Origin: Anaerolineales bacterium
GTDB taxonomy: Bacteria > Chloroflexota > Anaerolineae > Anaerolineales > UBA4823
Reading direction: 5' to 3'
Length of the DNA stretch: 64,000 nt
Assembly (NCBI GenBank): GCA_025057645.1
Contig: JANXBJ010000007.1
Location: forward strand, 46,664 to 110,663
Part shown: positions 6,353-22,124 of the stretch, one piece after another
Numbering within the stretch: the first letter of the stretch is position 1
Layout: every line of letters begins with the position of its first letter
Notes under the pieces: model-generated
The model's database searches: none
The model's input: only the letters and a program-made list of their open reading frames with translations
Told to the model about the DNA's origin: nothing
Position numbers and translations under genes: made by a program

Positions 6353-7606
6353 GTGAGTCGCTTTCTCGGCTATCGTTGTTCCCTTTGTCAGCGTGAGTAC
6401 TTAGAAAGCCAAGTTCAGTACACCTGCCCGAAGGATGGTGGGAACTTAGATGTAGCCCTAGATGTAGACCACATTCGGAAGTTTGTCTCACCCGGCCAGA
6501 TCTTTGCCCAAGCTGAGCCTTCGATCTGGCGTTACCTTCCCTTGCTGCCGGTTGACGACCCCGGTTTTGAAGGGACTCCGCTGCATCGTGTTGGCTGGAC
6601 TCCCACCTTTGAAACTCCTCGCTTGGCCGAAGAATTGGGTTTGAAAACCCTGTGGGTCAAAGACGAGAGTCGCAACCCCACCGCCTCCTTTAAGGACCGC
6701 GCCAGCGCAGTCGTTGTCACCCGAGCAAGAGAGATCAAGGCAGAAGTGGTCGTAACTGCGTCTACGGGAAATGCAGGCGCAGCGCTGGCCGGGATGGCCG
6801 CGGCCATCGGGCAAAAAGCGGTCATCTTTGCACCGAGAACCGCTCCCCCTGCCAAAGTGGCTCAACTGCTGGTTTTCGGTGCACAGGTGATCCTAGTGGA
6901 CGGCAATTACGATAGCGCTTTCGATCTGACCATCCAAGCTGCCCGGGAATTCGGTTGGTATTGTCGCAACACCGGCTACAACCCCTTCACCGCCGAAGGA
7001 AAGAAGACCGCAGCCTTTGAAATCTGGGAATGGTGGGAGAAAACGCGTCGCCAACATCCTCAATTTAGCCGCTTGAATGTGTTTGTCTCCGTTGGGGACG
7101 GTAACATCATCTCCGGCCTCCATAAGGGCTTCAAGGACTTGCTCGCTCTAGGGTGGATCGAGCAAATGCCGCGCATCTTTGGCGTCCAGTCCACCGGTTC
7201 TGCGGCGATTTACAATGCCTTCCAAGCCGGCACGGAACAGATCACGCCTGTCATAGCGAACACCCTAGCGGATTCGATCTCGGTCGATCTCCCTCGGGAC
7301 GGAGTGCGCGCCGTGCGCGCAGCGCGAGAAACCGGCGGCCGTTATCTCGCCGTGGAAGACGAAAAAATCCTCGAAGCCATCGCCTCTCTGGGAAAGGTAG
7401 GGATTTTCGCCGAACCGGCCGGAGCCACCTCCTACGCCGGTTTAGTTCAGGCGGTTCAAGCCGGATGGATTGGGGAGGAAGACGCAGTGGTGGTGCTTAA
7501 CACCGGCAGCGGCTTGAAAGACATCAAAGCGGCCATGCAAGCAGTTCCCCAAGCACCCGTTATCGAACCGACTCTCAGCGCATTGACGAAGCATCTTTAT
7601 GGATAG
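6353..7606 (+). CDS. Threonine synthase-like fold-type-II PLP enzyme
   Basis: N-terminal Cys-x2-Cys...Cys-P zinc-ribbon-like segment. PLP-lysine motif TASFKDRAS. 417 aa. GTG start preceded by GGGAGGAG. Confidence 0.75.
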   Translation: MSRFLGYRCSLCQREYLESQVQYTCPKDGGNLDVALDVDHIRKFVSPGQIFAQAEPSIWRYLPLLPVDDPGFEGTPLHRVGWTPTFETPRLAEELGLKTLWVKDESRNPTASFKDRASAVVVTRAREIKAEVVVTASTGNAGAALAGMAAAIGQKAVIFAPRTAPPAKVAQLLVFGAQVILVDGNYDSAFDLTIQAAREFGWYCRNTGYNPFTAEGKKTAAFEIWEWWEKTRRQHPQFSRLNVFVSVGDGNIISGLHKGFKDLLALGWIEQMPRIFGVQSTGSAAIYNAFQAGTEQITPVIANTLADSISVDLPRDGVRAVRAARETGGRYLAVEDEKILEAIASLGKVGIFAEPAGATSYAGLVQAVQAGWIGEEDAVVVLNTGSGLKDIKAAMQAVPQAPVIEPTLSALTKHLYG

Positions 7607-8603
7607 AAGAGCAGAGACGACCCCAGAAATTTCCGTGATTGCACCGGTATATAACGAAGTTCAATCTCTGCCAGAATTCTACCGCAGAGTGCGACAAGTC
7701 CTGGATGGATTGGGCTTGAGCTGGGAGCTGCTTTTGGTCGACGACGGTTCGACTGACGGTTCAACCGAACTGATCCGCCACTTTGCTAAAGAGGATCGCC
7801 GGGTGCGCCCGCTGATCTTTGCTCGCAACTTCGGCCATCAACTAGCAGTGACGGCAGGATTGGATTATTGCCGTGGCCGAGCTGCGATTGTCCTTGACTC
7901 CGATCTGCAGGACCCCCCGGAAGTCATGGCAGAACTAATTGCCAAATGGCGTGAGGGATATGAAGTGGTTTACGCCATCCGCTCTGAACGGGAAGGAGAG
8001 AGCTGGTTTAAGCTGCTCACCGCTTCCCTCTTCTATCGGCTAATCTACCGGATTACGGATGTCAAAATCCCCCTGGACACCGGTGACTTCCGTCTGCTGG
8101 ACCGCCAAGTGGTCAAAGTATTAAGAAGAATGCGCGAGCGGCACCGCTTTCTGCGCGGTATGTCGGCTTGGGTCGGGTTCCGGCAGACTGGCGTCCACTA
8201 CCGCAGGGCAGCTCGATTTGCCGGGCAGACCAAATATCCTCTGCGAAAGATGATTAAATTCGCCAGTGATGCGATCACCAGCTTCTCCTATTTGCCGCTC
8301 CAGCTAGCCACCTACCTAGGATTTGCAGCAGCCGGCCTGAGCATCTTAGCCATCCCCATTGTCGTCATCTTGCGCCAATCGGGGATGCAGGCATTTCTAG
8401 GGCAAGCCACGACTCTGATTGCGGTCTTATTCCTAGGGGGAGTACAGCTTATCTCCCTCGGCATCCTAGGAGAGTACATCGGACGACTCTATGACGAAGC
8501 CAAAGGTCGACCATTGTATATTCTAAGAGAAGCCCCCGAGCAAGACGGGGCAAAAGAGCCTGAAGAGCTTGAAAATGAATTCTCGGCAACCGAGCTCTCT
8601 TGA
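7599..8603 (+). CDS. GT2 glycosyltransferase, polyprenyl-phosphate sugar transferase type
   Basis: ISVIAPVYNE, LVDDGSTDGS and DSDLQD (DxD) motifs, with two C-terminal TM helices. The start overlaps the upstream gene by 8 nt. Confidence 0.85.
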   Translation: MDRRAETTPEISVIAPVYNEVQSLPEFYRRVRQVLDGLGLSWELLLVDDGSTDGSTELIRHFAKEDRRVRPLIFARNFGHQLAVTAGLDYCRGRAAIVLDSDLQDPPEVMAELIAKWREGYEVVYAIRSEREGESWFKLLTASLFYRLIYRITDVKIPLDTGDFRLLDRQVVKVLRRMRERHRFLRGMSAWVGFRQTGVHYRRAARFAGQTKYPLRKMIKFASDAITSFSYLPLQLATYLGFAAAGLSILAIPIVVILRQSGMQAFLGQATTLIAVLFLGGVQLISLGILGEYIGRLYDEAKGRPLYILREAPEQDGAKEPEELENEFSATELS

Positions 8604-8632
8604 AACTCAATCTTGTGCAAAGGAGAAACTCT

Positions 8633-10099
8633 ATGGCGAAGATCGACTTGACGGTAATTCCCGAACGGCGCAAGCGAGCGGTGCAGCGTGTTCGCGAGCG
8701 CAATATTATCATCCCTACCTTTGCTCAAATGAAGGACCCCTCCCTGATCCCGGAAAAAATCAAGAATGAGCTAAAAGAAATTGGGTTATGGGACCTCAAC
8801 CCCCGCAACCTCTTCCGCATCACTTGGAAAAACGAGCCGGTGGAAAAGGGTGGGGGGTTTGGCAAAGTGAATTTCATCGAGCTGCCCTCTTCCCTAACCG
8901 GGGTGCCGGCGCGCATTATCGCTCTCGTAGGCAAATGGTTTCCCACGGGGGCACATAAGGTTGGCGCAGCGTTCGGTTGCCTCGTACCGCGTCTGGTTAC
9001 CGGGCAATTCGACCCCACCACGCAAAAAGCGGTTTGGCCATCCACGGGCAATTATTGTCGCGGCGGTGCCTATGACTCAGCACTTTTAGCTTGCGAGTCG
9101 ATCGCAATCTTGCCCGAGGGGATGAGCCGTGAACGTTTTGAGTGGCTCTCTAGAATCGCCGGTGAAGTCATTGCCACTCCCGGCAGCGAGTCAAATGTAA
9201 AGGAAATCTTCGATAAATGCTGGGAATTGCGCCGCTCTGGCCAAGACCTAATGATCTTCAATCAATTCGAGGAGTTTGGCAATTATCTCTGGCACTATGA
9301 GATCACCGGCCACGCTATGGAAGAGGTTCTCAAAGACACGATGCGCCCGAAAGATCGCTACTTCGGAATGGTCTCCGCTACGGGTTCGGCCGGGACCATT
9401 GCCAGCGGAGATTATATGAAACAGCTCTTCCCGGCAAGCAAGATTTGCGCCAGCGAGGCCCTTCAGTGCCCTACACTCCTCGAGAACGGCTTTGGCGCCC
9501 ACCGCATCGAAGGGATCGGGGATAAACACGTGCCTTGGATTCACAACGTCAAAAACACAGATTTGGTTGTTGCCATTGACGACAACGCAGTAGTCAACCT
9601 AGCCCGACTCTTCAACGAACCAGCAGGACGGGCATACCTTGTGAAAAGGGGTGTTCCGGAGCATATCGTCCAGAATCTGGACCTGCTCGGTTTTTCAGGC
9701 ATTTCGAACATTCTCTCTGCAATTAAGATGGCCAAATACTATGAATTAGGAGAGAACGACATCGTGTTGACTGTGTTGACTGACTCAATGGAGCTATACG
9801 GCAGCCGGCTGAAAGAGATGCGAGAGGAATTCGGCGAGTACACCGAACTCGATGCCGCAGCTCATTTTGCCCAATACTTACTCGGTCAATCCACCGACAA
9901 TATGCTGGAACTTCGTTATGTCGACCGACGACGGGTTCACAACCTCAAGTACTTTACTTGGGTTGAACAACAAGGGAAGACCTACGAGGAGATTCTCGAT
10001 CAGTGGTATCAGCCCACCTACTGGACCGACATTCAAAATCAAGTCGAAGAGATCGACGCTCTGATCGAGGAATTCAACCGAGATGTGGGGCTTATCTAG
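8633..10099 (+). CDS. Fold-type-II PLP-dependent enzyme (TrpB/CysK superfamily), specific function unknown
   Basis: PTGAHKVGAAF lysine motif and the glycine-rich SATGSAGT loop are typical of the tryptophan-synthase-beta/cysteine-synthase fold. The start is moved to ATG 8633, which is preceded by AAGGAG. Confidence 0.65.
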   Translation: MAKIDLTVIPERRKRAVQRVRERNIIIPTFAQMKDPSLIPEKIKNELKEIGLWDLNPRNLFRITWKNEPVEKGGGFGKVNFIELPSSLTGVPARIIALVGKWFPTGAHKVGAAFGCLVPRLVTGQFDPTTQKAVWPSTGNYCRGGAYDSALLACESIAILPEGMSRERFEWLSRIAGEVIATPGSESNVKEIFDKCWELRRSGQDLMIFNQFEEFGNYLWHYEITGHAMEEVLKDTMRPKDRYFGMVSATGSAGTIASGDYMKQLFPASKICASEALQCPTLLENGFGAHRIEGIGDKHVPWIHNVKNTDLVVAIDDNAVVNLARLFNEPAGRAYLVKRGVPEHIVQNLDLLGFSGISNILSAIKMAKYYELGENDIVLTVLTDSMELYGSRLKEMREEFGEYTELDAAAHFAQYLLGQSTDNMLELRYVDRRRVHNLKYFTWVEQQGKTYEEILDQWYQPTYWTDIQNQVEEIDALIEEFNRDVGLI

Positions 10100-10143: not shown

Positions 10144-10178
10144 AAAGCGTCCGAAAGCTGTGCTTTCGGACGCTTTTT
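10144..10178 (+). terminator. Rho-independent terminator
   Basis: Perfect 14-bp stem aaagcgtccgaaag / ctttcggacgcttt with a 5-nt loop, running into T5. It begins 45 nt after the stop of 8633-10099. Confidence 0.85.
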
Positions 10179-10220
10179 CCTTATGCAGACAATGCCTTAT
10201 CTCCGAGTATAATAAACCCT

Positions 10221-10799
10221 GTGCTAGATCCAAGTGCTTTAATCCTCGTTGCCATTCTAAAATCACCCCGCGACCTAGAAATTGCTCGCGTATTAGGGTG
10301 GTACCGCATTCCGATGCGTTCGGCACCCAAAGTGATCCCGGTGGATTACTTGGCACTATATCAGACCGCTGCCTTCGGGAAGGCTAAGTGGCGCATCGAA
10401 TATATAGCCGAAATTCGCGGGGTAGAACTGACCACCCGAGGCGAGTTGTTGCAAAATGAGTTGGACCACCCCTACGCCAATCAAGAATACTACAAAGTCC
10501 AACTTGGACCGCTAGTTTCCCTTGAAAATCCGCTACCGGTGGGACGATGGAAGCGGATCACCTTCTTCTATACCCTAGGGGAGTACTTCCTGCGCGCAAA
10601 GAGTGTCGATGACCTAATTCTGGCGGAAGGAGACCGCGCCGGTGTATGGCGGGCTCTGCGTGAACGGAATACCCAAGCATACCCCAGTGGAAAGCCAGAG
10701 GAATCAGAAACCGAACTCTCCCCAACGTTACTAGCAGCTCTCCTGGGGATTGCTGGAGCCTGGAAGGTCTATTCCAAAAGTTCAGAGAGAGGTGTGTGA
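10221..10799 (+). CDS. Hypothetical protein (no family recognised)
   Basis: 192-aa ORF with a GTG start. No motif I can assign (…ARVLGWYRIPMRSAP…). Its stop overlaps the start of the hydantoinase gene. Confidence 0.6.
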   Translation: MLDPSALILVAILKSPRDLEIARVLGWYRIPMRSAPKVIPVDYLALYQTAAFGKAKWRIEYIAEIRGVELTTRGELLQNELDHPYANQEYYKVQLGPLVSLENPLPVGRWKRITFFYTLGEYFLRAKSVDDLILAEGDRAGVWRALRERNTQAYPSGKPEESETELSPTLLAALLGIAGAWKVYSKSSERGV

Positions 10800-12226
10800 T
10801 GAACGGTAGTCGACCAATCTTGATTAGGAACGTGGATGTCCTCACTGCGAGCGAAAAATTCCGCGCAGATATCTTGGTTGTAGGCGAGAAAATTCATACC
10901 ATAGGAGTAGACATTCCCACAGAAAATTGCGAAATAATCGATGGCAGTGGTCTCACAGCAATGCCGGGAGGAGTAGACGTACACACTCACTTCGATTTAC
11001 CGATGTTTGGGACGGTATCCAGCGATGATCACTATACCGGCCATAAGGCTGCAGCTTTCGGTGGAACCACCACGGTGATCGACTTCGTTCCCCTAGACAA
11101 GCCCACTCTAGAGGAAAGCATTGCTGCTTGGCGGGAGAAAGCCGACCCCAAAGCCGCCATTGACTTCAGTTTCCACATGAACATCTCCCGCTGGAACGAG
11201 ACTATCGCTAGGGAGATCCCCCGTTTGGTAGATTGGGGAATCCCTTCGATCAAGGTCTTCACGGCATACAACAACCGTTTGCGCATCAGCGATGGCGAAA
11301 TTTTCTCGGCTATGCGCATCGCCAAAGAGTACGGCATCCTAACTATGTTGCATGCCGAGAACGGCGACGTGATCGAAACCCTCGTCCAAGAGGCTTTGTC
11401 CCAAGGCAAAACCACCCCAGAATGGCATGCCCACACTCGACCAAGCTGGGGGGCTGTGGAAGCCACTCTGCGCGGTATTGCCCTAGCAGCGCAAAGCGGT
11501 GCTCCGCTCTATATCGTGCATATGAATGCCGGTGGCGAGGTTGACCAGTTAGCCTACGGACGTGAAAAGGGTGTGCCTGTGATGGGCGAAACTTGCCCTC
11601 AATACCTTTTCTTTACGGTAGAGCACCTGCGACGGCCGGATGGTGCCAAGTGGGTTTGTTCACCCCCGATGCGAACGCCAGAAGACAACGAAAGGCTTTG
11701 GCAGGGCTTAGCTCAGGGAATCTTGCAGACGGTAGGGACCGACCACTGTCCCTTCTTCTACGACGGCACTCGACCGATTCTTTATGAAGGAAAGCCAATC
11801 GCCATCCCTGGCAAGGAGTTAGGCAAGGATGATTTCACCAAGATCCCAAATGGCTTGCCCGGCGTCGGTGATCGCTTGCCCATCCTTTGGACCTACGGCG
11901 TGCGCACCGGAAAAATCTCCGAAAACCAATTTGTAGCCCTCAACTGCACTAACCCGGCGAAAATCTTCGGTCTATATCCTCAAAAAGGAGCTCTTCTTCC
12001 CGGCTCAGATGCCGACATCGTTCTCTGGGATCTCAACAAAAAGCTCACCTATGGGGTAGCGGTGGCACAACACCGCACCGACTACAATTTATACGAAGGA
12101 TGGGAGTTGGTCGGCTACCCCGTCAAGGTGTTCCTCAGAGGACAGTTGATCGTGGATGGCGATCAATGGCTCGGCAAAGCAGGACAAGGCCGCTTCCTTA
12201 AGCGCACACCCGGAACAGTGCTCTAA
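10796..12226 (+). CDS. Dihydropyrimidinase / D-hydantoinase (cyclic amidohydrolase)
   Basis: GGVDVHTHF metal motif, GGTTTVIDF, PSIKVFTAY (carboxylated-Lys region), HAENGD and GTDHCPF. The alternative ATG at 10799 overlaps the upstream TGA. Confidence 0.9.
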   Translation: MMNGSRPILIRNVDVLTASEKFRADILVVGEKIHTIGVDIPTENCEIIDGSGLTAMPGGVDVHTHFDLPMFGTVSSDDHYTGHKAAAFGGTTTVIDFVPLDKPTLEESIAAWREKADPKAAIDFSFHMNISRWNETIAREIPRLVDWGIPSIKVFTAYNNRLRISDGEIFSAMRIAKEYGILTMLHAENGDVIETLVQEALSQGKTTPEWHAHTRPSWGAVEATLRGIALAAQSGAPLYIVHMNAGGEVDQLAYGREKGVPVMGETCPQYLFFTVEHLRRPDGAKWVCSPPMRTPEDNERLWQGLAQGILQTVGTDHCPFFYDGTRPILYEGKPIAIPGKELGKDDFTKIPNGLPGVGDRLPILWTYGVRTGKISENQFVALNCTNPAKIFGLYPQKGALLPGSDADIVLWDLNKKLTYGVAVAQHRTDYNLYEGWELVGYPVKVFLRGQLIVDGDQWLGKAGQGRFLKRTPGTVL

Positions 12227-12236
12227 CTCCAAGTTT

Positions 12237-13784
12237 ATGATCCCCTCTTTCTTCCTAGCAGGCGCGGTTTTCCTGCCATTTCTGGCAGGGGTGGCGGTGA
12301 TGATTTCCCGAGCGAGCAAAGCTAGGCTGGGTTTGCAGTGGATGTTGGCTTTCCTAGGGGTCGCCCTAAGTTGGCTATTCCTATTTGGGTTGCGCTTTTC
12401 CTTGCCACACTCTCTTTCCCTGGCAACTTGGCAGCCTCAAATCCTCTTTCCGCTCTCTCCGGAGTTGCTGGCCGATGGGTTTTCGTGGGCTGTAGCTCTG
12501 GCCTTAGCCACTGCAGGGGGCGCGGTGCTCCTCACCGAAGCAACTAACCCTTCGGGGAGTCTGGTCTTCGGGTGGACCTCTAGCCTCATCTTACTTGGGC
12601 TGGGCTTGTTCGCAGTCTTTGCCGGCAACGAACTCACCCTTCTACTGGCCTGGGCGGCGATCGATCTGGTTGAGCTAGGAATTTGGCTCAGCCGACCTGC
12701 GCAACCGACCTTGCGCGAGCGGGTGATTTTGGCTTTTTCCTCTCGGACATTTGGGGTGATGCTCGCTTTGTGGGGGTTAGGCAGTCCCTGGGCCTACGGG
12801 CTTTCGATCTTGCTGCGTTGGGGAGTGTTTCCTTTTCACCTCCCTTATTTGGAGTCTCAAGAACTCCGCCGCGGCTTGGGCACAATAATCCGCCTCGTTC
12901 CGCCCTTGACAACCATTCCGCTACTTGCCCGCCTCGCAGACTACGCTTATTTCCAAACCCAAGAAGGCATTGGGCTATTGATCAGCCTAATTAGCCTTGC
13001 TGCAACTATCTTGTGGCTTAACAGCACCCAGCCTCTCGAGGGGCGCCCTTTTTGGATTATCGCCACTGCAGCGTTTGCCTTCTATGCTGCAACGATCAAC
13101 CGTCCCGAAGCCGTTATCGCCTGGGGGATGATCCTCGCCTTTTGTGGAGTTTTGTTATTCGTCTTCGAGAGTCGGCCCCGCCTTTGGCCGGTCGGCATTG
13201 GCGCGCAAATGCTTTTGCTGCTTGGTTTACCTTTCACACCGTTTTGGGACATACTCCGAATCTACCGTTCAGAATGGACTCTGCCCGAAGTCCTGCTTTC
13301 CCTTTCCCACCTGTTCCTAGCTGCGGGCTACCTACGATTCCTGCTGCAAAAGCCTGATGTGCCTCTTCCCGGAGAGCCTTGGGGAAAAGCCCTGTACCCG
13401 CTGGCTTTCTACGCTACGCTTGGAGTGTCTGTCGCAATCGGATACGGGGGTTGGAGAAGCACACTCGAAACAGCTCTGGAGAGTCCCTATCTCGTTCTGC
13501 GCACTCCGCTCGACTATCTTCTCGGACTCGGGCTAAGCCTTGCAGGGATCGGATTTGCGTTCGGTGCCAAGCAGCTCCACCTCAAACGGCAGTTTCCCGC
13601 AGCCTGGGTCGATCTCCTCTCCCTCGAGTGGATATACCAAGCCCTACGATGGAGCTTTCATCAACTCGGCACGCTTTACCGCCAAGTTGAAACGATTCTG
13701 GAAGGGAGAGGTGGGCTTTTGTGGGCATGGGTGGTCTTGCTCCTCCTTTTCCGAACTTTCTCCCTGCTGAGTAGAGGGGAATAG
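12237..13784 (+). CDS. Polytopic membrane protein, divergent NuoL/M/N (antiporter-like) fold suspected
   Basis: About 14 hydrophobic segments. GVFPFHLPYL resembles the PFHxWLP segment of proton-conducting subunits, but the usual charged residues are absent. The start at ATG 12237 is uncertain (no SD). Confidence 0.5.
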   Translation: MIPSFFLAGAVFLPFLAGVAVMISRASKARLGLQWMLAFLGVALSWLFLFGLRFSLPHSLSLATWQPQILFPLSPELLADGFSWAVALALATAGGAVLLTEATNPSGSLVFGWTSSLILLGLGLFAVFAGNELTLLLAWAAIDLVELGIWLSRPAQPTLRERVILAFSSRTFGVMLALWGLGSPWAYGLSILLRWGVFPFHLPYLESQELRRGLGTIIRLVPPLTTIPLLARLADYAYFQTQEGIGLLISLISLAATILWLNSTQPLEGRPFWIIATAAFAFYAATINRPEAVIAWGMILAFCGVLLFVFESRPRLWPVGIGAQMLLLLGLPFTPFWDILRIYRSEWTLPEVLLSLSHLFLAAGYLRFLLQKPDVPLPGEPWGKALYPLAFYATLGVSVAIGYGGWRSTLETALESPYLVLRTPLDYLLGLGLSLAGIGFAFGAKQLHLKRQFPAAWVDLLSLEWIYQALRWSFHQLGTLYRQVETILEGRGGLLWAWVVLLLLFRTFSLLSRGE

Positions 13785-13787
13785 GGC

Positions 13788-14414
13788 TTGAGCCAGCAAT
13801 GGGTAAGCTTTCTGGGTGTTCTCCTTGCTGTCGGGGCTGCCCTATATAATCTCATTTCTTCGGACTGGCGTTGGAGAATGCTAGCGCTTGGGGTTCAAGG
13901 GATCGGCTTCTTTCTGCTCTGTTTTCAAAGTCTCTCGCTTGGATTGTCTCTGGTGAAGTTCATCGAGAGTTGGACAGCGGTGGCGATCATCGGCACAGCT
14001 TTGGCGAATACAGCCCGTAATCCTGCCCGGGGAAGATCGGTGGAGAGAGAGACAAGCGGTCCTTTTCATTTTCCGTTTTCTGCGAGGGCATTCCGCCTTG
14101 CAATGGCCGTCCTTATCGGCATAGCGCTTCCCCAAGCAGTCTGGCACTTAATGTCTCTGTTCGGCGGCCTTGGCTTCTTCCATGCTATAGCTGCTCTCGC
14201 ACTCAGTAGCATTTCTCTGCTGATTTTGAGCTTTCGGACCTCCACCCTTTCGATTGCGATTGGACTGCTCACATTTTTCCAAGGTTTCGAAATCCTTTTT
14301 GCTGCGATCGAACCCTCGCTCATGCTTACCGGTCTACTGGCGGCTATCGTCTTGAGCACGGCCTTCCTTTGCGCTTATTTCCTTCGGGTGGAAGAGGAGC
14401 GTCAAGCCCGATGA
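13788..14414 (+). CDS. Small polytopic membrane protein, C-terminal half NuoK/MrpC-like (tentative)
   Basis: 208 aa with a TTG start 4 nt after the upstream stop. The GFEILFAAIE segment resembles the GLEIMINA helix of NuoK. Confidence 0.4.
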   Translation: MSQQWVSFLGVLLAVGAALYNLISSDWRWRMLALGVQGIGFFLLCFQSLSLGLSLVKFIESWTAVAIIGTALANTARNPARGRSVERETSGPFHFPFSARAFRLAMAVLIGIALPQAVWHLMSLFGGLGFFHAIAALALSSISLLILSFRTSTLSIAIGLLTFFQGFEILFAAIEPSLMLTGLLAAIVLSTAFLCAYFLRVEEERQAR

Positions 14415-15820
14415 ATGCCCCTTTAGTGTGGATCGGGCTGCCCACGCTCTTTTCCATCGCTCTGCTTCTCCTCCTCCGTTGGAGAAAGGTCGCCGCCCTA
14501 AGCGGAAGCATTTTCGCGCTCGGCCTGGCCAGCGCAGCTTGGGCGCTACCTGTCGGGGAAAGGGTACAAGTTGGGGTTCTGAGCTTTGAGATCGAGGCAA
14601 GCTGGCTCTTATTTGGAAGAAGCTTCATATTGGAGAGCTCCGACCGACCCTTGGTCATCCTGCTCAACCTCGCTATCGCTCTCTGGTTTGTCGGTACTCT
14701 CAGCAGTGAAGTTCATCCCTTCTTTTTCCCCCTGGGAATGGGCCTGAGCGTAGCTCTGATAGCCGCTGTTCTCATTCAACCCCTTTACTACGGCGCCATT
14801 CTCGTCCAGTTAGCCGCAGTGATTTCGCTCCTTTTGTTCGTCAGTGATTACCCAGAAATTGATCTAGGGATCAAGCGTTTTTGGGTCTTTCAGAGCCTTG
14901 CGATGCCTCCGCTGCTCTTTGCGGGCTGGTTGCTCGAGGGAAACGAAGCGAGTCCAGATGCAATTCCAAGCCTCTCTCTGCTGATTCCCCTTCTGCTCGG
15001 CTACAGCCTATTGCTCAGTGGAGTGCCTTTCCAAAGCTGGCTGCCTGCCGTTGCCCAGCACGCTAACCCCTTCTCCTTCGCCTTTACCCTCTTTGTTGCT
15101 TCCTTTACGACTGTCCTTTTTGCCTTTTCTCTCGTCCGGGAATTTGCTTGGCTGGTCTCCTCACCCTGGATAATCGCCTTTTTCAGCCTCCAAGGTCTGA
15201 TGATGAGCCTTATCGGCGGATTGGGTGCGCTCTATCATCGCCACCTAGGCCGGTTTCTAGGATATATCCTAGTTAAGGAGCTTGGGTTTAATTTTCTGAT
15301 CTTAGGCCTAGGGTTGCTCTCGTCGGAGAAGTCGCCCTTGCTTGCGCTCCTCTTTTTGCAAGCCTTGCCTCGCGGACTTGCGCTAGCTCTATTGACATTT
15401 GCCTCTAATATCTATCGGGACCAAAGGGGGAGTCTATCCATTCAGGACCTGGTTGGAATAGGGAGGCAGTATCCGCTGGCCACCTTCGCATATTTTGTTG
15501 CAGTGTTAACTCTGGCGGGCTTTCCACTGACCGCTGCCTTTCCGACACACCTTCCGATCTGGCAAGGTTGGTTTGAACGCTTCCCGCCAATCGCCATTAG
15601 CGCAGTGTTTGGGAGTATTGGAGTGATGATCGGCGGCTTGCGCACTTTAGCAGCCTTGATCCGCAGCACAGGCGAGCCGGGATGGGTCTCTTCTGAGCTT
15701 CACGGCCAAAGGGTTCTCTTGACCGTTGGAGGGCTTGGGTTGCTCCTAGCCGGCATCTTCCCCCAATGGTTCTTCCCGCTGCTGTTCCAAATGGGTTTGA
15801 CCTTCCTCCAAGGAGGATAA
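14411..15820 (+). CDS. Polytopic membrane protein, divergent NuoL/M/N (antiporter-like) family
   Basis: ATGA overlap with the upstream gene. GVPFQSWLPAVAQHANP, ALYHRHLGRFLGYILVKELGFNFLILG and LTLAGFPLTAAFPTH follow the spacing of conserved PF00361-type blocks, but the Lys/His/Glu positions are substituted. Confidence 0.55.
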   Translation: MNAPLVWIGLPTLFSIALLLLLRWRKVAALSGSIFALGLASAAWALPVGERVQVGVLSFEIEASWLLFGRSFILESSDRPLVILLNLAIALWFVGTLSSEVHPFFFPLGMGLSVALIAAVLIQPLYYGAILVQLAAVISLLLFVSDYPEIDLGIKRFWVFQSLAMPPLLFAGWLLEGNEASPDAIPSLSLLIPLLLGYSLLLSGVPFQSWLPAVAQHANPFSFAFTLFVASFTTVLFAFSLVREFAWLVSSPWIIAFFSLQGLMMSLIGGLGALYHRHLGRFLGYILVKELGFNFLILGLGLLSSEKSPLLALLFLQALPRGLALALLTFASNIYRDQRGSLSIQDLVGIGRQYPLATFAYFVAVLTLAGFPLTAAFPTHLPIWQGWFERFPPIAISAVFGSIGVMIGGLRTLAALIRSTGEPGWVSSELHGQRVLLTVGGLGLLLAGIFPQWFFPLLFQMGLTFLQGG

Positions 15821-15908
15821 GGCGGAGTTAATGGGCAGTCCAGGACTTGGACGATTCCTGTCCACCTCTATTTACCAAAGTCCAAAGGACTCTGAGGGGG
15901 TATGCCCG

Positions 15909-15917
15909 TGCTATAAT
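15909..15917 (+). promoter_or_regulatory. Extended -10 promoter element (TGcTATAAT)
   Basis: tgctataat at 15909-15917, about 40 nt upstream of the AAGGAG-preceded ATG at 15958. Confidence 0.45.
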
Positions 15918-15957
15918 CGACTCAAGAAACCTTCACCGCTTATGCCAAGGAGCCTTG

Positions 15958-17133
15958 ATGCAATCCGAACAAATCCTCAAGCAACTGAATTGGCTGGATG
16001 ACGAACGGCGTAAGGATAAAGCAACCATTGCCTCTCTTGAGGAAAAGGTCAAAGCCCTAGAACAAAGCCTGCAAATCGCCGATCAACAAATCAAAGAATT
16101 ATCCACCGAGTTGAGTCGCCTTAAGTCGTTGGGAGGCCGCGTCGAGCAAATCGACGAAGCTGTCATGAGATTCAGGCTCGAAGTCAAGCAGCAGTTTGAA
16201 GAGTGGGAAAAAGAGACCCAGCGACGCGAGCAGGAAGCGGAGAAGCTTCGCCAAGTCGAAATCAAGGGTCTAGACACCTCGATCCTCGAACTGCGCAAGG
16301 AACTGAGCACCCTCGCCGAGGTCCGCCGCAGCCTACAAACCCGTATTGAAGAAGAAATGCGCCTATCGCGCACAATAGGCCAACTTGAAGAGAAAATCGC
16401 TGAACTTCAACGAACAGAGGAGGAGTATAACCGTCTTCTTCGCCAAGCGGAGGAGAATCGACGTCAGGATGCCCGCAAGATCACCGATCTACAAGGGGAA
16501 GCCATGGCACTTCGCAAACTCTACAACGAGCTCCAAGCGCAGCTTGAATTGGCCAGTGTGGCTGCAAAGCGAATCGAAAATCGAATGGCTGAGCTGGAAA
16601 ACACCTTCGGCGAGCTCAAACAAGCACAGAGCAAGTTCATCGAAGAACAGGCTTTACTCCAACTCGAACGAGAACGACTGTGGAAAGAGTGGCAAGCGAA
16701 GATCGAACAATCGGAACAGATGAATGCCGAGGCGGAGAAGACCATTCAGACCGTAGACTCCACCAGCCGTGCAGTACAGAGGGCACACCAGGCTATTGAG
16801 GAACTGATCCAAAAGGTCGAGCGACGGGTTAGCGAACTCACCGAACTGCAGCGCCTAGGCGAAGAGCGGCTACGTCAAGAATGGGTGACTTTCAAAAGCG
16901 ATGATCAAAAGCGCTGGACGAATTACTCCCTTGTCCAAGAGGAGATCCGCTCCGATCTAGTACGCCAGATCGAAAAAATTACCGGCCAACTCAACGAACA
17001 CGAAGAAGGTCTCCGGACGATTCAGGAGTCGATGGCTCTTTTGAACGAACAACTGGAACGCAACCTGCGCAACATACTCAATGCTATCTATAGTTGGGCT
17101 GCGGAATACGACCGCACTAAACACACTCTTTAG
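15958..17133 (+). CDS. Coiled-coil protein, function unknown
   Basis: 391 aa of almost uninterrupted heptad-like E/K/Q/L/R-rich sequence with no TM segment. The start is trimmed to ATG 15958, which has an AAGGAG SD. Confidence 0.7.
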   Translation: MQSEQILKQLNWLDDERRKDKATIASLEEKVKALEQSLQIADQQIKELSTELSRLKSLGGRVEQIDEAVMRFRLEVKQQFEEWEKETQRREQEAEKLRQVEIKGLDTSILELRKELSTLAEVRRSLQTRIEEEMRLSRTIGQLEEKIAELQRTEEEYNRLLRQAEENRRQDARKITDLQGEAMALRKLYNELQAQLELASVAAKRIENRMAELENTFGELKQAQSKFIEEQALLQLERERLWKEWQAKIEQSEQMNAEAEKTIQTVDSTSRAVQRAHQAIEELIQKVERRVSELTELQRLGEERLRQEWVTFKSDDQKRWTNYSLVQEEIRSDLVRQIEKITGQLNEHEEGLRTIQESMALLNEQLERNLRNILNAIYSWAAEYDRTKHTL

Positions 17134-17142
17134 AGACAACAA

Positions 17143-19068
17143 ATGAAGGTCATCGGCACAGCCGGACACGTCGATCACGGAAAATCTTCATTGGTCGAGG
17201 CATTGAGCGGCATCAACCCGGATCGCCTTGCCGAAGAACAAGCGCGTCAGATGACCATCGATCTCGGGTTTGCTTGGTTCACCCTGCCGAACGGAGAGGA
17301 GATCGGTATTGTGGACGTGCCCGGCCACCGCGATTTTATCGAGAATATGCTAGCGGGGGTTGGAGGGATTGACGCAGTCCTTTTGGTGATCGCCGCTGAC
17401 GAAGGGGTGATGCCCCAAACCAAGGAACACCTGGCTATCCTCAATCTGCTGCAGATCGAGCGTGGCGTTGTCGCCCTAAATAAGATCGATCTCGTTGACG
17501 AGGAGTGGCTAACCTTAGTTGAAGAAGACATTCATCAGCTCCTAAAAAACACCCGTCTCGCCAAAGTGCCAATTGTGCACGTTTCTGCCAAAACTCGTCA
17601 GGGGCTGGATAAACTCGTATTTGCTCTACAAAACGAGCTGAGCAACCTTCCTCAGCGGGTCAACAGCGGCCGTCCCCGTTTGCCTATCGACCGTGTCTTT
17701 AGCTTGAGCGGTTTCGGAACCATCGTCACCGGCACGCTAATCGATGGGAATCTGGAGGTAGGAACCGAGTGCGAGATTCTGCCCAAAGGTCTGAAGACAC
17801 GCATTCGGGGACTGCAAACCCATAAAAGGAAAGAAGAAATCGCCTTTGCCGGAAGCCGCACGGCTGCAAATCTCAGCGGAGTCTCTGTGGATCAGATTCG
17901 ACGCGGAGATGTTCTGGTCGGAACCGGTTCGTTTCGACCCACCCAACGGTTAGATGTACGGTTTCGACTCCTCCCGGACGCCACGAGAAACCTGAAGCAC
18001 AACACCGAAGTAAAACTCTTTCTATACACCAGCGAAGTGCTAGGACGGGTGAGGCTCCTCGGTGCGGAAGAACTCCCTCCGGGGGAAGAGGGCTGGCTTC
18101 AGATCGAGCTGCAGTCCCCCGTTGTGGCTGCGCGGGGCGATCGATTCATCTTGCGCCGTCCTTCCCCTTCGGAGACTCTCGGGGGCGGAGTGGTGCTCGA
18201 TCCTTTCCCGCTCCGCCGCTACAGACGCTTTAGCAACGAATGGCGCGAACGCTTGGAGGCCCTATCGCTAGGCACTCCCAAAGAGGTGATCCTGAACCTC
18301 CTTCAACGCAACGCGTGGATGACCCTCACGCAACTCCTCCAAGAGAGCAACTTTGCCCCAGAGAAGGTTGAACAAGCGATCTCCTCCCTGCTCCAAGAAG
18401 GACTGATCATCGATCCCCAACAAAGGTTCTCTAAAGAAACAAAAGAGAAACTTGAAGCTCCTTTGATCGCTCGCTCAAGGTGGGAGGAATGGCAGAAGAA
18501 GGCCCAAATCCTCTTAGAGGAATACCATCAGTCTTATCCCTTGCGGCGTGGAATGCCGCGGGAAGAACTAAAAGCCCGCCTCAAACTGCCTTCCTCGCTT
18601 TTCCAAACCTTGGTGGAAACGCTGAAGAGCCAAGGGAAAGTAAAAGAAGAAAAGACTGCACTGGCTCTCTCGGAGTTTCAAATCCGGTTATCCCCCGGTC
18701 AACAAGAACAAGTCAACACGCTTTTGCGTTTGTTTGCCCAAGCTCCCTTTTCACCACCGAGCGTCAAGGAGTGCAAGCAAAAACTAGGAGAAGAGCTTTA
18801 CACAGCACTTTTGGAACTGGAAGAACTAATTCAAGTCTCAGAAGAAGTAGTTTTTCGCCGGCAAGATTATCTCAAAGCCAAGGAGACGGTGCGCCAACTG
18901 ATCACTAATCAAGGAGAAATCAGTGCGGCGCAGGTGCGTGACCACCTGCAGACCAGTCGCAAATACGCCTTAGCACTGCTAGAGTACCTCGACCAAATCG
19001 GTTTCACCGAACGGCGGGGTGATGTGCGTATCCTGAAATCAACAGCGCTCCCAGCAAGAGAAAGATAA
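17143..19068 (+). CDS. selB: Selenocysteine-specific translation elongation factor SelB
   Basis: EF-Tu-like GTPase motifs GHVDHGKSSL, DVPGH and NKIDL. The long C-terminal winged-helix region ends ...RKYALALLEYLDQIGFTERRGDVRIL, typical of bacterial SelB. 641 aa. Confidence 0.9.
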   Translation: MKVIGTAGHVDHGKSSLVEALSGINPDRLAEEQARQMTIDLGFAWFTLPNGEEIGIVDVPGHRDFIENMLAGVGGIDAVLLVIAADEGVMPQTKEHLAILNLLQIERGVVALNKIDLVDEEWLTLVEEDIHQLLKNTRLAKVPIVHVSAKTRQGLDKLVFALQNELSNLPQRVNSGRPRLPIDRVFSLSGFGTIVTGTLIDGNLEVGTECEILPKGLKTRIRGLQTHKRKEEIAFAGSRTAANLSGVSVDQIRRGDVLVGTGSFRPTQRLDVRFRLLPDATRNLKHNTEVKLFLYTSEVLGRVRLLGAEELPPGEEGWLQIELQSPVVAARGDRFILRRPSPSETLGGGVVLDPFPLRRYRRFSNEWRERLEALSLGTPKEVILNLLQRNAWMTLTQLLQESNFAPEKVEQAISSLLQEGLIIDPQQRFSKETKEKLEAPLIARSRWEEWQKKAQILLEEYHQSYPLRRGMPREELKARLKLPSSLFQTLVETLKSQGKVKEEKTALALSEFQIRLSPGQQEQVNTLLRLFAQAPFSPPSVKECKQKLGEELYTALLELEELIQVSEEVVFRRQDYLKAKETVRQLITNQGEISAAQVRDHLQTSRKYALALLEYLDQIGFTERRGDVRILKSTALPARER

Positions 19069-19109: not shown

Positions 19110-22100
19110 ATGAGAAACCGACTTATACGTCTTACTTTGCCTTTATTATTCGCTTTTGGGGGGATCATAGCGTTGGTAGCTGCGGTGCGCAGCGAGGCTT
19201 GGGCACAACAGGGCGCCCCGTCAACGATGTATCCAGTGCACCAAGGTTCTCTGCGGCCTCAAAGCGGTGGAGGGGACCTATCGATTACTAAAACCCACAC
19301 CACTCCCCTGATCCTAGGACAAGTGACTACCTACACGCTATTTGTCAAAAACGTCGGCGCAGCGATCACCCCCCCCTACCTCGTGAAAATCACCGATACC
19401 CTGCCGATTCCTTCCCTCGCTTATCAAGCCCATCAGGGCACAGGGTGGAACTGCACGGTGATCACCCCCACAATTGGGTGCCAGTATGCACTCACCCAAA
19501 CGCTAAATAGCAATGCTTTTCTCCCGCCGCTAAAAATTATTGTCTCGGTCAAGCAACCAACCCCTTCATCCTTCAACAACGTTGTCATAATCAGCGATAC
19601 CCTGGGCACCAATAATACCTTTACCGATCCAGCGATTATCAGCACCAATCTCTCGATCACCAAATCAGCCTTTCCGGGAGTGATCACACCTACCCGAACC
19701 GTGACTTTCACTCTTCAGGTGAAGAATAACGGGCCCAACGACGCCAGCAGCGTTAGGGTCACGGACACCCTTCCGAGTGTCTTCATCTTTTCCGCAGCTA
19801 AGCCGAGCGGCCAATATAACCCCGCAACCGGATTGTGGTCTGTGGGCAGCCTCGCCAAAAACGAGACGAAAACGCTCGAGATTGCTGCCGTTGTAAGAGA
19901 CCGAATTTGTGGTCAGCTCTATACCAACTCGGTTGAGGGGCTTTCCGCAGATCTAGTCGACCCAATTCTGAGCGATAATACAGCCTCGGCTTCCGTAACC
20001 GTCAGAAACACTTGTGTCGTAGGAAGAGTGGTCCGCTCAGACAACACGAGCATCCCTATTCAGAACGCCAGAGTGAGGATTACCGACAGTGGCAATCGGG
20101 TCTATACTATAACGGTCTCGGCTGATGGTGTGTTTACGTTCACCAACTCGACCACGCAGACGTTGGCTGCCGGCAATGCCACCTTCTTGGCCTCTGCGGT
20201 GGGGTTTCGTCCGAAAAGTGTCTCCAGCTCCCTCGTTGCCGACATCAAGAACGGGCCGATCATTATCCCCCTTGACCCTATTGCCCAACTCGACCTCCGC
20301 AAATCGGACGGCACTCTACACTTCATCCCCGGCGAGACGATCACCTATACCATCCCGATCACCAACCTAGGGGTGCTCAATGCACGCAATTTGGTCATCA
20401 GCGACGTCCTAGATAGTCAACTGATCTTTATTACCTATACGCTCAGAGACAAAAGCGGAAAAATCCCTCACGTTGTTCCCACGCCAGTGAACCGCGTCTA
20501 CACTTGGACGCTCTCCTCAAGCTACATACTAACCGCTACCGAAAAGTTGACCCTCGCCATTCGGGTAAGGGTTGCCGACCCCTTGGCAAGCGGCACAAAC
20601 CAAATCGATAATAAAGTGTCCTTGCGCTACAACGAGGACAACACTAGCCGGGTGAACAAAAGTGCCACCGACATCTCCTACACTCCTAATTTTGAGATCG
20701 TTCAGAACAGCGTCAATCCCACCGAAGCGAGAATCAACGAAAGGTTTACGTTTAGTTTCCGAGTCTATAACCGTCAACCTCAGGTAGCAGCAACAAATGT
20801 CGTCTTCACCAACACCTTTCCCGCTTACCTGAGCTTCTATTCAAGTAGCCCAACCGGGAGTTACAACAATAACAACCGGGTCTTCTCGGTTGATCTTGGG
20901 ACGATACCTCCCAATTCGTTCAAAGACGTCCAAATTGTCATGAGCGTCAGCAATGTGGCTGCTTCTACACAAACGCTCAATAATACGGGAACAGCTCGGT
21001 TTGAGCACGGGGGCAAACGGCAGTGGCGCAGTTCAAACACCGTGCAATACCGTATCTTGGGCACCTCAACCCTGCCGGGGACCGGGTTTGGGCCTCCTGC
21101 AGCAGTCAAGTCAGTGGGCAACCTCTTCGAACCCCAAGAATCGAAAGCCCCCCCTTTCGCCTTTTTGCAACTCTTCCAAGAGGCCAAGGGTAGAAAACCT
21201 CTCACCCACCCCCTCAACTTAACAGAGGGAAGGAATCCATCCCGGGACTCTTTAGCGCTCCCGCTGGCATTCTGGGTGGCTATGGGCATCGGGATTCTCT
21301 TGCTCGGCGGTGGGCTGCTGGGGGTGGCCTATAGCCTGCTCGACCGCAGCTCGGAGTGGTCGAGTTGGGCGAGACAAATGGGATTGGTGGTGATGTTCGC
21401 CAGCTTGTTCTTTTTTGGAGGAGCGTTGTGGCTAAGAAGCATCGCTGCGCCGGTTCAATCAGAAGAATTCATTCGGTCTCCTCAGCCCGTGCCCACGCTG
21501 CTCAGTCAGCTCCCCGAACCCGCTCTCCCTCCGCCCGAATGGTGGGCAGCCCAGCCTGAAAGCTTGCCGGATTATCCCATTCCCACTCCGACCTTAGCCG
21601 CCGACCAAGCAGGCGTAGAAGTGGACGATACCCCACCGGTTCGCCTGCTGATCCCAAAGTTGGGCGTAGATGCCGTAATCAAGTATGTGCCCTTCGATGG
21701 GTTCACTTGGCTGATCTCCGGCCTACAGGATGAGATCGCCTGGATGGGAAGCACCTCTTGGCCGGGGCTAGGGGGGAACACTGGCTTGGCCGGCCACGTC
21801 ACCCTGCGCAATGGCGCCGATGGTCCTTTCCGCTATCTGGACGCTCTACAAAAGGGAGACATTGTCCACCTCTACACCCAAGAAAGACTCTATACCTACC
21901 GCGTCCGAGAAAGCCTGATCGTTAAGGACGACGACTTTTCAGTTGTCCAACCCACTAGTGAGCCCACTCTGACGCTGATCACCTGTACCGGCTGGAATGA
22001 CGACTTCGGGCACTACTTAGAGCGGCTGGTGATACGCGCAACACTGGAGAAGTCCCAGCCTTTGAGCGGCGCAGGTCCGTTAGGATGGCCGATTTGGGGG

Positions 22101-22124
22101 TTTGGATGGTTAGGGGGAAATTAA
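19110..22124 (+). CDS. Surface protein with DUF11-type repeats fused to an LPGTG motif, two TM helices and a C-terminal sortase domain
   Basis: N-terminal signal/TM segment. Four DUF11-like repeats (DLSITK...VKNVG..., NLSITK...VKNNGPNDASSVRVTDTLP...). A CarboxypepD_reg-like beta domain. The remaining elements are listed as separate features below. Confidence 0.8.
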   Translation: MRNRLIRLTLPLLFAFGGIIALVAAVRSEAWAQQGAPSTMYPVHQGSLRPQSGGGDLSITKTHTTPLILGQVTTYTLFVKNVGAAITPPYLVKITDTLPIPSLAYQAHQGTGWNCTVITPTIGCQYALTQTLNSNAFLPPLKIIVSVKQPTPSSFNNVVIISDTLGTNNTFTDPAIISTNLSITKSAFPGVITPTRTVTFTLQVKNNGPNDASSVRVTDTLPSVFIFSAAKPSGQYNPATGLWSVGSLAKNETKTLEIAAVVRDRICGQLYTNSVEGLSADLVDPILSDNTASASVTVRNTCVVGRVVRSDNTSIPIQNARVRITDSGNRVYTITVSADGVFTFTNSTTQTLAAGNATFLASAVGFRPKSVSSSLVADIKNGPIIIPLDPIAQLDLRKSDGTLHFIPGETITYTIPITNLGVLNARNLVISDVLDSQLIFITYTLRDKSGKIPHVVPTPVNRVYTWTLSSSYILTATEKLTLAIRVRVADPLASGTNQIDNKVSLRYNEDNTSRVNKSATDISYTPNFEIVQNSVNPTEARINERFTFSFRVYNRQPQVAATNVVFTNTFPAYLSFYSSSPTGSYNNNNRVFSVDLGTIPPNSFKDVQIVMSVSNVAASTQTLNNTGTARFEHGGKRQWRSSNTVQYRILGTSTLPGTGFGPPAAVKSVGNLFEPQESKAPPFAFLQLFQEAKGRKPLTHPLNLTEGRNPSRDSLALPLAFWVAMGIGILLLGGGLLGVAYSLLDRSSEWSSWARQMGLVVMFASLFFFGGALWLRSIAAPVQSEEFIRSPQPVPTLLSQLPEPALPPPEWWAAQPESLPDYPIPTPTLAADQAGVEVDDTPPVRLLIPKLGVDAVIKYVPFDGFTWLISGLQDEIAWMGSTSWPGLGGNTGLAGHVTLRNGADGPFRYLDALQKGDIVHLYTQERLYTYRVRESLIVKDDDFSVVQPTSEPTLTLITCTGWNDDFGHYLERLVIRATLEKSQPLSGAGPLGWPIWGFGWLGGN
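21072..21086 (+). other. LPGTG sortase-recognition-like motif inside 19110-22124
   Basis: Codons ctg ccg ggg acc ggg read in frame as L-P-G-T-G (context TSTLPGTGFGPP). Confidence 0.6.
21630..22070 (+). other. Sortase catalytic domain of 19110-22124
   Basis: RLLIPKLGVDAVI, His in GLAGHVTL (21795-21797), Cys in TLITCTG (21984-21986) and Arg in LVIRATL (22035-22037). This is the canonical His-Cys-Arg triad order. Confidence 0.8.

Follow-up and report, generated by a model that had tools for sequence, protein, structure and literature searches.

Three adjacent genes for membrane proteins, here called P1, P2 and P3 and together the trio, lie in a 64,000-nt stretch of the genome of an Anaerolineales bacterium (GenBank assembly GCA_025057645.1, contig JANXBJ010000007.1, positions 46,664 to 110,663; hereafter the window). 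In complex I, Mrp antiporters and group-4 hydrogenases, protons are pumped by antiporter-like subunits, and the mechanism of their Lys/Glu relay is debated. An earlier note, made from the sequence alone, had described the trio as a possible stand-alone membrane module of degenerate antiporter-like proteins coupled to a hydantoinase encoded immediately upstream. The analysis presented here places P1 and P3 among the antiporter-like proteins, shows that their proton-relay residues have been exchanged mostly for arginine, and finds the trio conserved in Anaerolineales-type Chloroflexota independently of the hydantoinase. The features of the locus are listed in Table 1.

The gene layout is that given in the earlier note, and all of the motifs quoted there were found in the three proteins. 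The stop codon of the hydantoinase gene (TAA, 12224-12226) is followed by a 10-nt gap before the ATG of P1 (12237), P1 ends at 13784 and is separated by 3 nt from the TTG start of P2 (13788), and the end of P2 (14414) overlaps the ATG of P3 (14411) within an ATGA. Tight junctions within the trio recur in annotated relatives, with gaps of 0-6 nt or 4-nt overlaps (six related loci), as would be expected of subunits of one complex. A longer open reading frame (ORF) for P1, starting at 12156, is unlikely to be used, as homologues have 515-518 aa and a database entry of identical sequence, 515 aa long, has its start at 12237. The AT skew falls to -0.24 to -0.26 at 12001-16000, across the three membrane genes, which fits T-rich hydrophobic codons and not a replication feature.

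Table 1. Features of the trio locus (positions in the window).
Feature	Position	Strand	Description
P1	12237..13784	+	515 aa, 16-helix antiporter-like subunit, NuoL/MrpA type
P2	13788..14414	+	208 aa, 7-helix membrane protein, no recognised family
P3	14411..15820	+	469 aa, PF00361 antiporter-like subunit, NuoN/MrpD type (judged from profile matches)
Coiled-coil gene	15958..17133	+	391 aa, unnamed conserved family; most constant neighbour of the trio
SelB (selenocysteine-specific elongation factor)	17143..19068	+	SelB domain set in homologues
D-hydantoinase/dihydropyrimidinase	10796..12226	+	TIGR02033; lineage-specific upstream neighbour
192-aa protein	10221..10799	+	No family match; precedes the hydantoinase
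Terminator-like hairpin (10144-10176), then promoter-like site (10186-10213)	10144..10213	+	

P1 and P3, the large subunits

P3 matches PF00361 (E = 2e-11; 44 bits, cut-off 21.5) over residues 186-401 only, so that the family assignment made by eye in the earlier note holds for this protein. It carries the motifs VPFQSWLP (205-212), ALYHRHLGRFLGYILVKELGF (272-293) and LTLAGFPLTAAFPTH (366-380). Among NCBIfam models, MrpD and NuoN rank highest, with scores far under their equivalog cut-offs. A profile built from 36 family members matched the solved MbsH', NuoN, NuoM, NdhB, MbhH, MrpD and HycC chains with E-values of 7e-30 to 1e-10, and aligned over its full length with NuoN (98%), NuoM (97%) and NuoL (94%) of Escherichia coli in hhalign comparisons. 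The corresponding values were 99.5% for a profile of the N/D class and 98.8% for one of MrpD, and scores were slightly higher with MrpD/NuoM/N-type than with L-type profiles. Two prolines, P206 and P372, are invariant and lie at broken-helix positions; from these and the full-length NuoN alignment we infer a fold of 14 transmembrane helices (TM) with broken TM7 and TM12. P3 is thus a genuine member of the PF00361 antiporter-like subunits, though a divergent one, and belongs to the NuoN/MrpD type.

P1 has no match in Pfam or NCBIfam. It fails both PF00361 and PF00662, and no Pfam model matched any of the 36 family members examined (0/36). Its profile returned no match among PDB sequences, and hhalign comparisons with single E. 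coli sequences and with the P3 family (3%) were not significant. The AlphaFold (AF2) model of P1 (predicted local distance difference test score, pLDDT, 84.5; predicted template modelling score, pTM, 0.86) did, when submitted to Foldseek, match NuoL, ND5, NdhF and MrpA (E-values of 3e-12 to 1e-9, query TM-score, TMq, ~0.7), and all of the top 50 matches were of this kind, so that P1 shows the family fold of 14 TM with two inverted 5-TM repeats. An unrelated fold, which would have told against the earlier reading, was thus not what the structure prediction gave, and a GT-C or O-antigen-polymerase type of fold is ruled out by the match to NuoL/ND5/MrpA. Sequence support depends on richer, multi-sequence canonical profiles: hhalign gave 75.5% against a six-protein E. 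coli profile and 96.3% (E = 1.8e-9, 406 columns) against a profile of 16 canonical NuoL/M/N, HyfB/D/F, MrpA and MrpD sequences. On the basis of fold and profile-profile comparison, P1 belongs to the antiporter-like superfamily despite failing the Pfam model, and the claim of the earlier note is supported.

In the predicted structure of P1 the core consists of 14 TM, a beta-hairpin lies between the second and third of these, and in the AF2 model both TM7 (184-195 / 208-) and TM12 (317-329 / 335-342) are broken. The motifs AWAAID (138-143) and VFPFHLP (197-203) lie within this core, and local motifs common to P1 and NuoL include DGxS in TM3, AFxxxRxG in TM6 and R194 at the position of NuoL K229. 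A C-terminal extension follows, with AF2 helices at 424-446 (TM15), 455-489 and 494-512 (TM16). The lateral helix (464-489) is amphipathic: its hydrophobic moment (muH) is 1.78, and those of the TM helices are 0.4-0.7. The sequence LEWIY aligns with FDWLY of NuoL. With 47-66 aa, the lateral segment is long enough to span about one neighbouring subunit, and this C-terminal element of the NuoL/MrpA type (lateral helix plus TM16) probably clamps an adjacent subunit. A helix VIII motif, H254/T257/M258/V259, is given as a mark of NuoL/MrpA in PMC4938563. It is not found in P1, where the equivalent stretch is GLGTIIRLVPPLTT.

P2, a seven-helix protein

The AF2 model of P2 shows seven helices (pLDDT 89.9). 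In the family alignment R28 and E168 are invariant and K57, R103 and E175 nearly so. The family comprises 905 cluster representatives at 50% identity (E <= 1e-3), nearly all of 190-225 aa, and a profile search of 1.84 billion representatives returned, among the best 150 matches, only members of the family itself and no bridge to a known family.

The earlier note had taken the helix with GFEILFAA (166-173) as NuoK-like, a suggestion that lacks statistical support. PF00420 matched none of 35 family members at E <= 10 (0/35), while HyfE, used as a positive control, matched it at E = 8e-18. The P2 profile had no match in the PDB, the best whole-chain Foldseek hit (E = 0.47) was not significant, and hhalign comparisons with NuoK or HyfE as single sequences gave only 0.3-1.5%. 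A profile of eight NuoK, MrpC and HyfE sequences yielded a weak alignment (6.1% probability, E = 0.006), which is collinear with MrpC and pairs the "R..IG" and "LxAIV" stretches. The C-terminal third of P2 could therefore conceivably be distantly MrpC/NuoK-like. Within the last three helices (130-207), E168 lies inside a helix and E175 at its end, and in every alignment these two residues fall off E36 and E72 of NuoK. Comparisons of P2 with NuoJ, with MrpB, with the MrpA C-terminal domain plus MrpB, and with parts of P1 or P3 gave no significant result, nor did one of its own N-terminal with its C-terminal helices (internal duplication).

Replacement of the proton relay

Residues of the proton path were compared by means of alignments to E. 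coli NuoL, NuoM and NuoN and column counts over 36 members of each family. The TM5 glutamate (NuoL E144) and the TM7 lysine (K229) are described as universally conserved in the family in PMC4938563. At the first of these P1 has A140 (Ala in 26, Thr in 6 and Ser in 2 of the 36 members), with D143 (36/36) and E146 (33/36) one and two turns further on; the P3 family has Glu in 21/36 and the window protein Gln. At the second, P1 has Arg in all 36 sequences (R194) and P3 has Leu. The TM8 Lys/His is represented in P1 by R219 at the adjoining position (Arg in 33/36), and in P3 nothing is conserved there. P3 has Glu/Asp (32/36) in place of the TM10 His and Arg (32/36) in place of the TM11 His. At the position of the TM12 Lys/Glu, P1 has no charge and P3 has Arg (22), His (8) or Lys (3). 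In these alignments the canonical TM5-Glu/TM7-Lys/TM8-Lys/TM12-Lys relay is replaced, mostly by Arg, and the proposal that Lys/Glu/His residues of the proton path had been exchanged thus holds for both large proteins.

In their overall composition, too, the proteins are strongly depleted in lysine, as seen in P1 (5 K vs 27 R; family means 5.0 vs 27.2). For comparison, the counts are 23 K and 24 R in the neighbouring hydantoinase and 15 K and 16 R in E. coli NuoL. Other features have been retained. D80, D143 and R194 of P1, E168 of P2 and P206, P372 and R411 of P3 are invariant, and buried charges and helix-breaking prolines are kept down to 25-30% identity. Conservation at this level indicates functional genes under selection and not decaying copies.

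Distribution and conserved gene order

Two samples of related loci were collected. The first was anchored on P2, by a degenerate DNA pattern for its motif, and contains at least 120 species-representative loci; the second was anchored on the coiled-coil gene downstream of P3 and consists of the best 80 of at least 543 loci, with a bias toward relatives of the window. All of the P2-anchored loci are from Chloroflexota, and every named homologue is from Anaerolineales, Anaerolineae or Chloroflexota. The order P1-P2-P3 was found in 98 of the 99 P2-anchored loci that carry all three genes, and all three were present in 63/64 loci of the second sample, which includes the cultured carriers Leptolinea sp. 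HRD-7, Thermanaerothrix daxensis and T. solaris. The trio is confined to Anaerolineales-type Chloroflexota and present in hundreds of Anaerolineae species; on the reading favoured below it has been inherited vertically there, independently of the hydantoinase. In some metagenome-assembled genomes (MAGs) from long reads (L009:12324-13719, L028, L043, L055 and L122) trio genes are split into several ORFs, which are probably assembly frameshifts and not pseudogenes.

Downstream of the trio the gene order is nearly constant. The coiled-coil gene lies directly 3' of P3 in 64/69 P2-anchored loci, and P3 directly 5' of the coiled-coil gene in 71/72 loci of the other sample. SelB follows the coiled-coil gene directly in 67/69 coiled-coil-anchored loci and is found within 2.5 kb downstream of P3 in 36/43 P2-anchored loci. 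In L006 and L007, the loci that diverge most, the trio is found with neither the coiled-coil gene nor SelB. The conserved block is [P1 P2 P3][coiled-coil SelB] with variable flanks, and the hydantoinase is a clade-specific neighbour.

The coiled-coil protein has no Pfam family and gave generic coiled-coil matches only; a PADLOC search likewise returned generic coiled-coil noise and no match to a defence system. It nevertheless represents a specific conserved family and not low-complexity noise, with conserved motifs (LEWLDEERRKDK and RLRQEWVTFKSDDQKRWTNY), and is encoded in at least 543 species-level genomes, nearly always with P3 on one side and selB on the other. In the window selB begins 9 nt past the coiled-coil gene, a close pairing that is also kept elsewhere. 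On its other side the coiled-coil gene is separated from P3 by a 137-nt spacer, which contains TGCTATAAT and may provide it with a promoter of its own.

The position of SelB raises the question of a link to selenium, in which the five genes would form one unit and the Arg-lined membrane proteins would deal with hydrogen selenide or an oxyanion of selenium. The constancy of SelB after the coiled-coil gene, with flanks that vary outside the block, would agree with this, and the conserved buried arginines would suit anion binding. The link is purely positional, however: neither selA, selD nor a gene for tRNA-Sec was found in the window (ARAGORN detected no tRNA, and an Rfam scan returned no family), and the trio persists in L006 and L007 where SelB is missing. 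To our knowledge, no antiporter-like protein carries anions, and we consider this explanation barely credible.

The coiled-coil protein is central to another explanation, namely that the trio is a degenerate, non-conducting scaffold, which has lost transport and serves as a membrane platform or anchor for the coiled-coil protein, for example in the envelope or filament organisation of these filamentous bacteria. That both positions described as universally conserved in PMC4938563 (NuoL E144 and K229) have been lost agrees with such a role, as do the near-constant place of the coiled-coil gene after P3 in both samples and its membership of a specific family. A scaffold would, however, be expected to shed its buried charges and helix breaks, yet the invariant ones persist and R219 is Arg in 33/36 sequences; L006 and L007, moreover, have a trio with no coiled-coil gene to anchor. 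We regard a pure scaffold as unlikely, though it is the main rival of the reading favoured below.

The hydantoinase and other neighbouring genes

The enzyme encoded upstream of P1 is a hydantoinase, as had been proposed. It matches TIGR02033 above the cut-off (E = 5e-155). Residues 8-470 of its 476 span all 454 positions of the model, a coverage that leaves no extra membrane-docking segment. No convincing terminator-like site was seen in the 10-nt gap before P1, so that co-transcription of the two genes is plausible, and probable, in this genome. The local transcription unit probably starts further upstream, at a terminator-like hairpin (15-bp stem, 8 GC pairs) followed by a promoter-like site (10 of 12 matches). 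This combination is a likely operon boundary between the gene of a 499-aa pyridoxal phosphate (PLP)-dependent enzyme and that of the 192-aa protein.

The suggestion that the trio transports a substrate or couples energy in partnership with the hydantoinase, as DabB works with DabA, was largely not borne out by comparison with other genomes. The short gap without a terminator speaks for it, as does a hydantoinase gene directly upstream of P1 in 38/62 coiled-coil-anchored loci, which are close relatives, and in some distant ones (L004, L008). In the broader, P2-anchored sample, however, the gene adjoins the trio (within 1 kb upstream) in only 18 of 54 assessable loci and is absent upstream in 34/54. 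In about 17 further relatives the gene of a 501-aa PD40/TolB-like lipoprotein lies between hydantoinase and P1, splitting the pair, and in L003, L006 and 16 other loci the trio begins a divergent unit of its own. The enzyme is also of standard length and has no transmembrane finger like that of DabA (bioRxiv 10.64898/2026.03.13.711513), and DabB retains proton-path residues that the trio proteins do not. A functional partnership with the hydantoinase is thus highly improbable.

Where the hydantoinase is missing, the commonest upstream gene is a divergent one for a DUF3048-type lipoprotein (16/34 loci), which means that the trio heads its own transcription unit there. Since the upstream genes vary and the downstream coiled-coil gene is constant, the hydantoinase is to be seen as a clade-specific neighbour, and its link to the trio is mostly a synteny accident of one clade. 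The 501-aa lipoprotein is secreted (for example L151:1702-3207), and its gene is inserted in many Anaerolineaceae.

The 192-aa protein, which had been included in the proposed module, has no match in Pfam, NCBIfam or PADLOC. Its gene is conserved upstream of the hydantoinase, and in L042, L064 and L069 it stands directly before P1 without a hydantoinase. Further upstream in the window, two PLP-dependent (PALP) enzymes (8600-10099 and 6353-7606, both on the + strand) flank a GT2 glycosyltransferase, downstream of a Bmp-type ATP-binding cassette (ABC) transporter; this order is conserved in L001, L008 and L009, and the 499-aa PALP enzyme resembles cysteine synthase but is extended considerably at both termini. 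On the other side, a gene at 19110-22124 (+) specifies a surface protein of 1004 aa, in which CARDB/CLIPPER-type domains are repeated and a sortase domain lies at the C-terminus (Pfam matches of the L001 homologue).

A possible role for the trio

The reading we favour, with a confidence somewhat short of even, is that the trio is an autonomous ion-handling or electrostatically switching device and not a canonical proton pump. It is preferred over a proton pump because the line of buried charges is continuous and there is no lysine wire. P1, P2 and P3 would be subunits of one autonomous complex with ancestry in the antiporter module of Mrp, hydrogenase-4 and complex I. Its core would resemble MrpA-(B/C)-MrpD, with P1 of the MrpA/NuoL type, P3 of the MrpD/NuoN type, and P2 as a seven-helix connector with a buried invariant Glu, at the place that mrpB/mrpC or hyfE holds in the gene order. 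The buried charge chain would run through D143, E146, R170, R194 and R219 of P1, E168 of P2, and E/D290, R321 and R/H/K380 of P3.

Neighbouring subunits of complex I are arranged so that the TM12 residue of the first is opposite the TM5 acid of the second. In the trio the pair of this kind that is best conserved would be R/H/K380 of P3 with D143/E146 of P1, which would put P3 at the place of NuoM relative to NuoL, under the lateral helix of P1. P2, with E168, could then lie at the other face of P3, as NuoK does beside NuoN. By analogy with these complexes, we infer such contacts within the trio. As a secondary device, the complex might bind or move ions or transmit electrostatic conformational changes, driven by the membrane potential or an ion gradient acting on carboxylates with fixed Arg counter-charges, and without Grotthuss-type lysine proton pumping. 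Its output may be linked to the co-conserved, cytoplasmic coiled-coil protein.

Several observations weigh against this interpretation. Only 21 of 36 P3 members have the TM5 acid, P2 belongs to no recognised family, and the spacer between P3 and the coiled-coil gene, at 46-140 nt among the loci, carries a possible separate promoter. The constant position of the coiled-coil gene and SelB next to the trio could reflect history and not function. Arginine cannot shuttle protons, and the loss of the relay could thus equally mean that nothing is conducted at all. A more specific version, with an undescribed MrpA/MrpD-derived pair and a new 7-TM subunit, in which arginines and carboxylates form a network in place of the former proton wire of lysines, would make the trio a conformational transducer driven by ions or membrane potential and not an antiporter, coupled to the coiled-coil protein and possibly involved in filament or cell-envelope organisation of Anaerolineae. 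In this full form the proposal is speculative and quite unlikely to be right.

The trio is a natural, widely conserved and minimal stand-alone pair of L-type and N-type proteins, in which the TM5 Glu and TM7 Lys have been replaced and most other lysines turned to arginines while the fold, broken helices and buried charges were kept. If it still moves ions, it would represent another chemistry for the antiporter-like fold, and if it moves none, a clear case of that fold put to other use. A natural antiporter-like pair without relay lysines should be of interest to the complex I and Mrp field, and the question is testable because cultured carriers of the gene block exist. No description of a P1-P2-P3 module was found in the literature, which is not proof of absence. 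As the P1 and P2 families are unrecognised by Pfam (0/36 and 0/35), their description would also help to annotate many genomes of Chloroflexota.

Comparison with known systems

The stand-alone character of the trio was confirmed, in that neither a redox module nor MrpE/F/G accompanies it. Searches with all E. coli Nuo and Hyf queries against every six-frame ORF of the window (phmmer) found no such subunits, including any adjacent NiFe-hydrogenase or NuoB/D/H/I-like protein. The Pfam families of MrpE, MrpF and MrpG, all three of which are carried by the reference mrp operons, were not found among the genes within 10 kb either side of six related loci, and DabA (PF10070) was found neither in the window nor in the related neighbourhoods.

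These results bear on the idea that the trio is an accessory module, which docks onto a complex encoded elsewhere (complex I, Mrp or a group-4 hydrogenase) and adds or regulates antiporter units. The sizes and order of the genes do match hyfD-hyfE-hyfF, the add-on module of hydrogenase 4, and their order also that of mrpA-(B)-C-D. Against docking stand the lack of partner genes in the window and around the six relatives, the lateral helix and TM16 that P1 itself has, an element that normally closes the distal end of the arm, and the loss of the relay lysines, which would break proton coupling with a canonical partner. We consider docking very unlikely, and an autonomous complex remains the preferred reading.

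Among known systems, the Mrp antiporters (CPA3) share with the trio the order of a large L-type, a small and a large D/N-type subunit (mrpA-(mrpB)-mrpC-mrpD) and the absence of a redox module. P1 scores best among Mrp profiles with the MrpA N-domain (36% vs 13%), ahead of MrpD, and has a lateral helix and TM16 as in MrpA. Unlike Mrp, the trio has neither MrpE/F/G nor the C-terminal (DUF4040/NuoJ-like) domain of MrpA, P2 is unrecognisable as MrpB or MrpC, the TM5/TM7/TM8/TM12 relay is replaced, and P1 fails PF00361 and PF00662.

The hyfD-hyfE-hyfF genes of E. coli hydrogenase 4 specify proteins of 479, 216 and 526 aa, compared with 515, 208 and 469 aa for the trio. HyfE resembles P2 in having about seven helices and a conserved acidic helix in the C-terminal third, but it is in this third that HyfE matches PF00420, which no P2 protein does. 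There are no hydrogenase subunits near the trio, and P1 differs in its NuoL-type C-terminal extension. With complex I the trio shares the NuoL fold of P1, the full-length alignment of P3 with NuoN, the beta-hairpin, the DGxS of TM3 and the broken TM7/TM12, while the Q-module, the N-module and NuoH, A and J have no counterpart. P1 departs from NuoL in its lateral segment, which reaches over about one subunit only, in positions E144 and K229, which are not conserved, and in the absent helix VIII motif.

DabB offers a precedent for a NuoL-like protein of PF00361 lineage, with a short lateral helix, that works outside respiration; it acts as a single membrane subunit and needs DabA, whose helical finger inserts, and it keeps the proton-path residues of NuoL (bioRxiv 10.64898/2026.03.13.711513). 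The trio differs in comprising two antiporter-like subunits and a 7-TM protein, in having no DabA and in its replaced path residues. In PMC4938563, MrpA/NuoL and MrpD/NuoN are treated as functionally distinct classes that are proposed to work paired, and according to PMC11496545 isolated antiporter modules can conduct protons alone.

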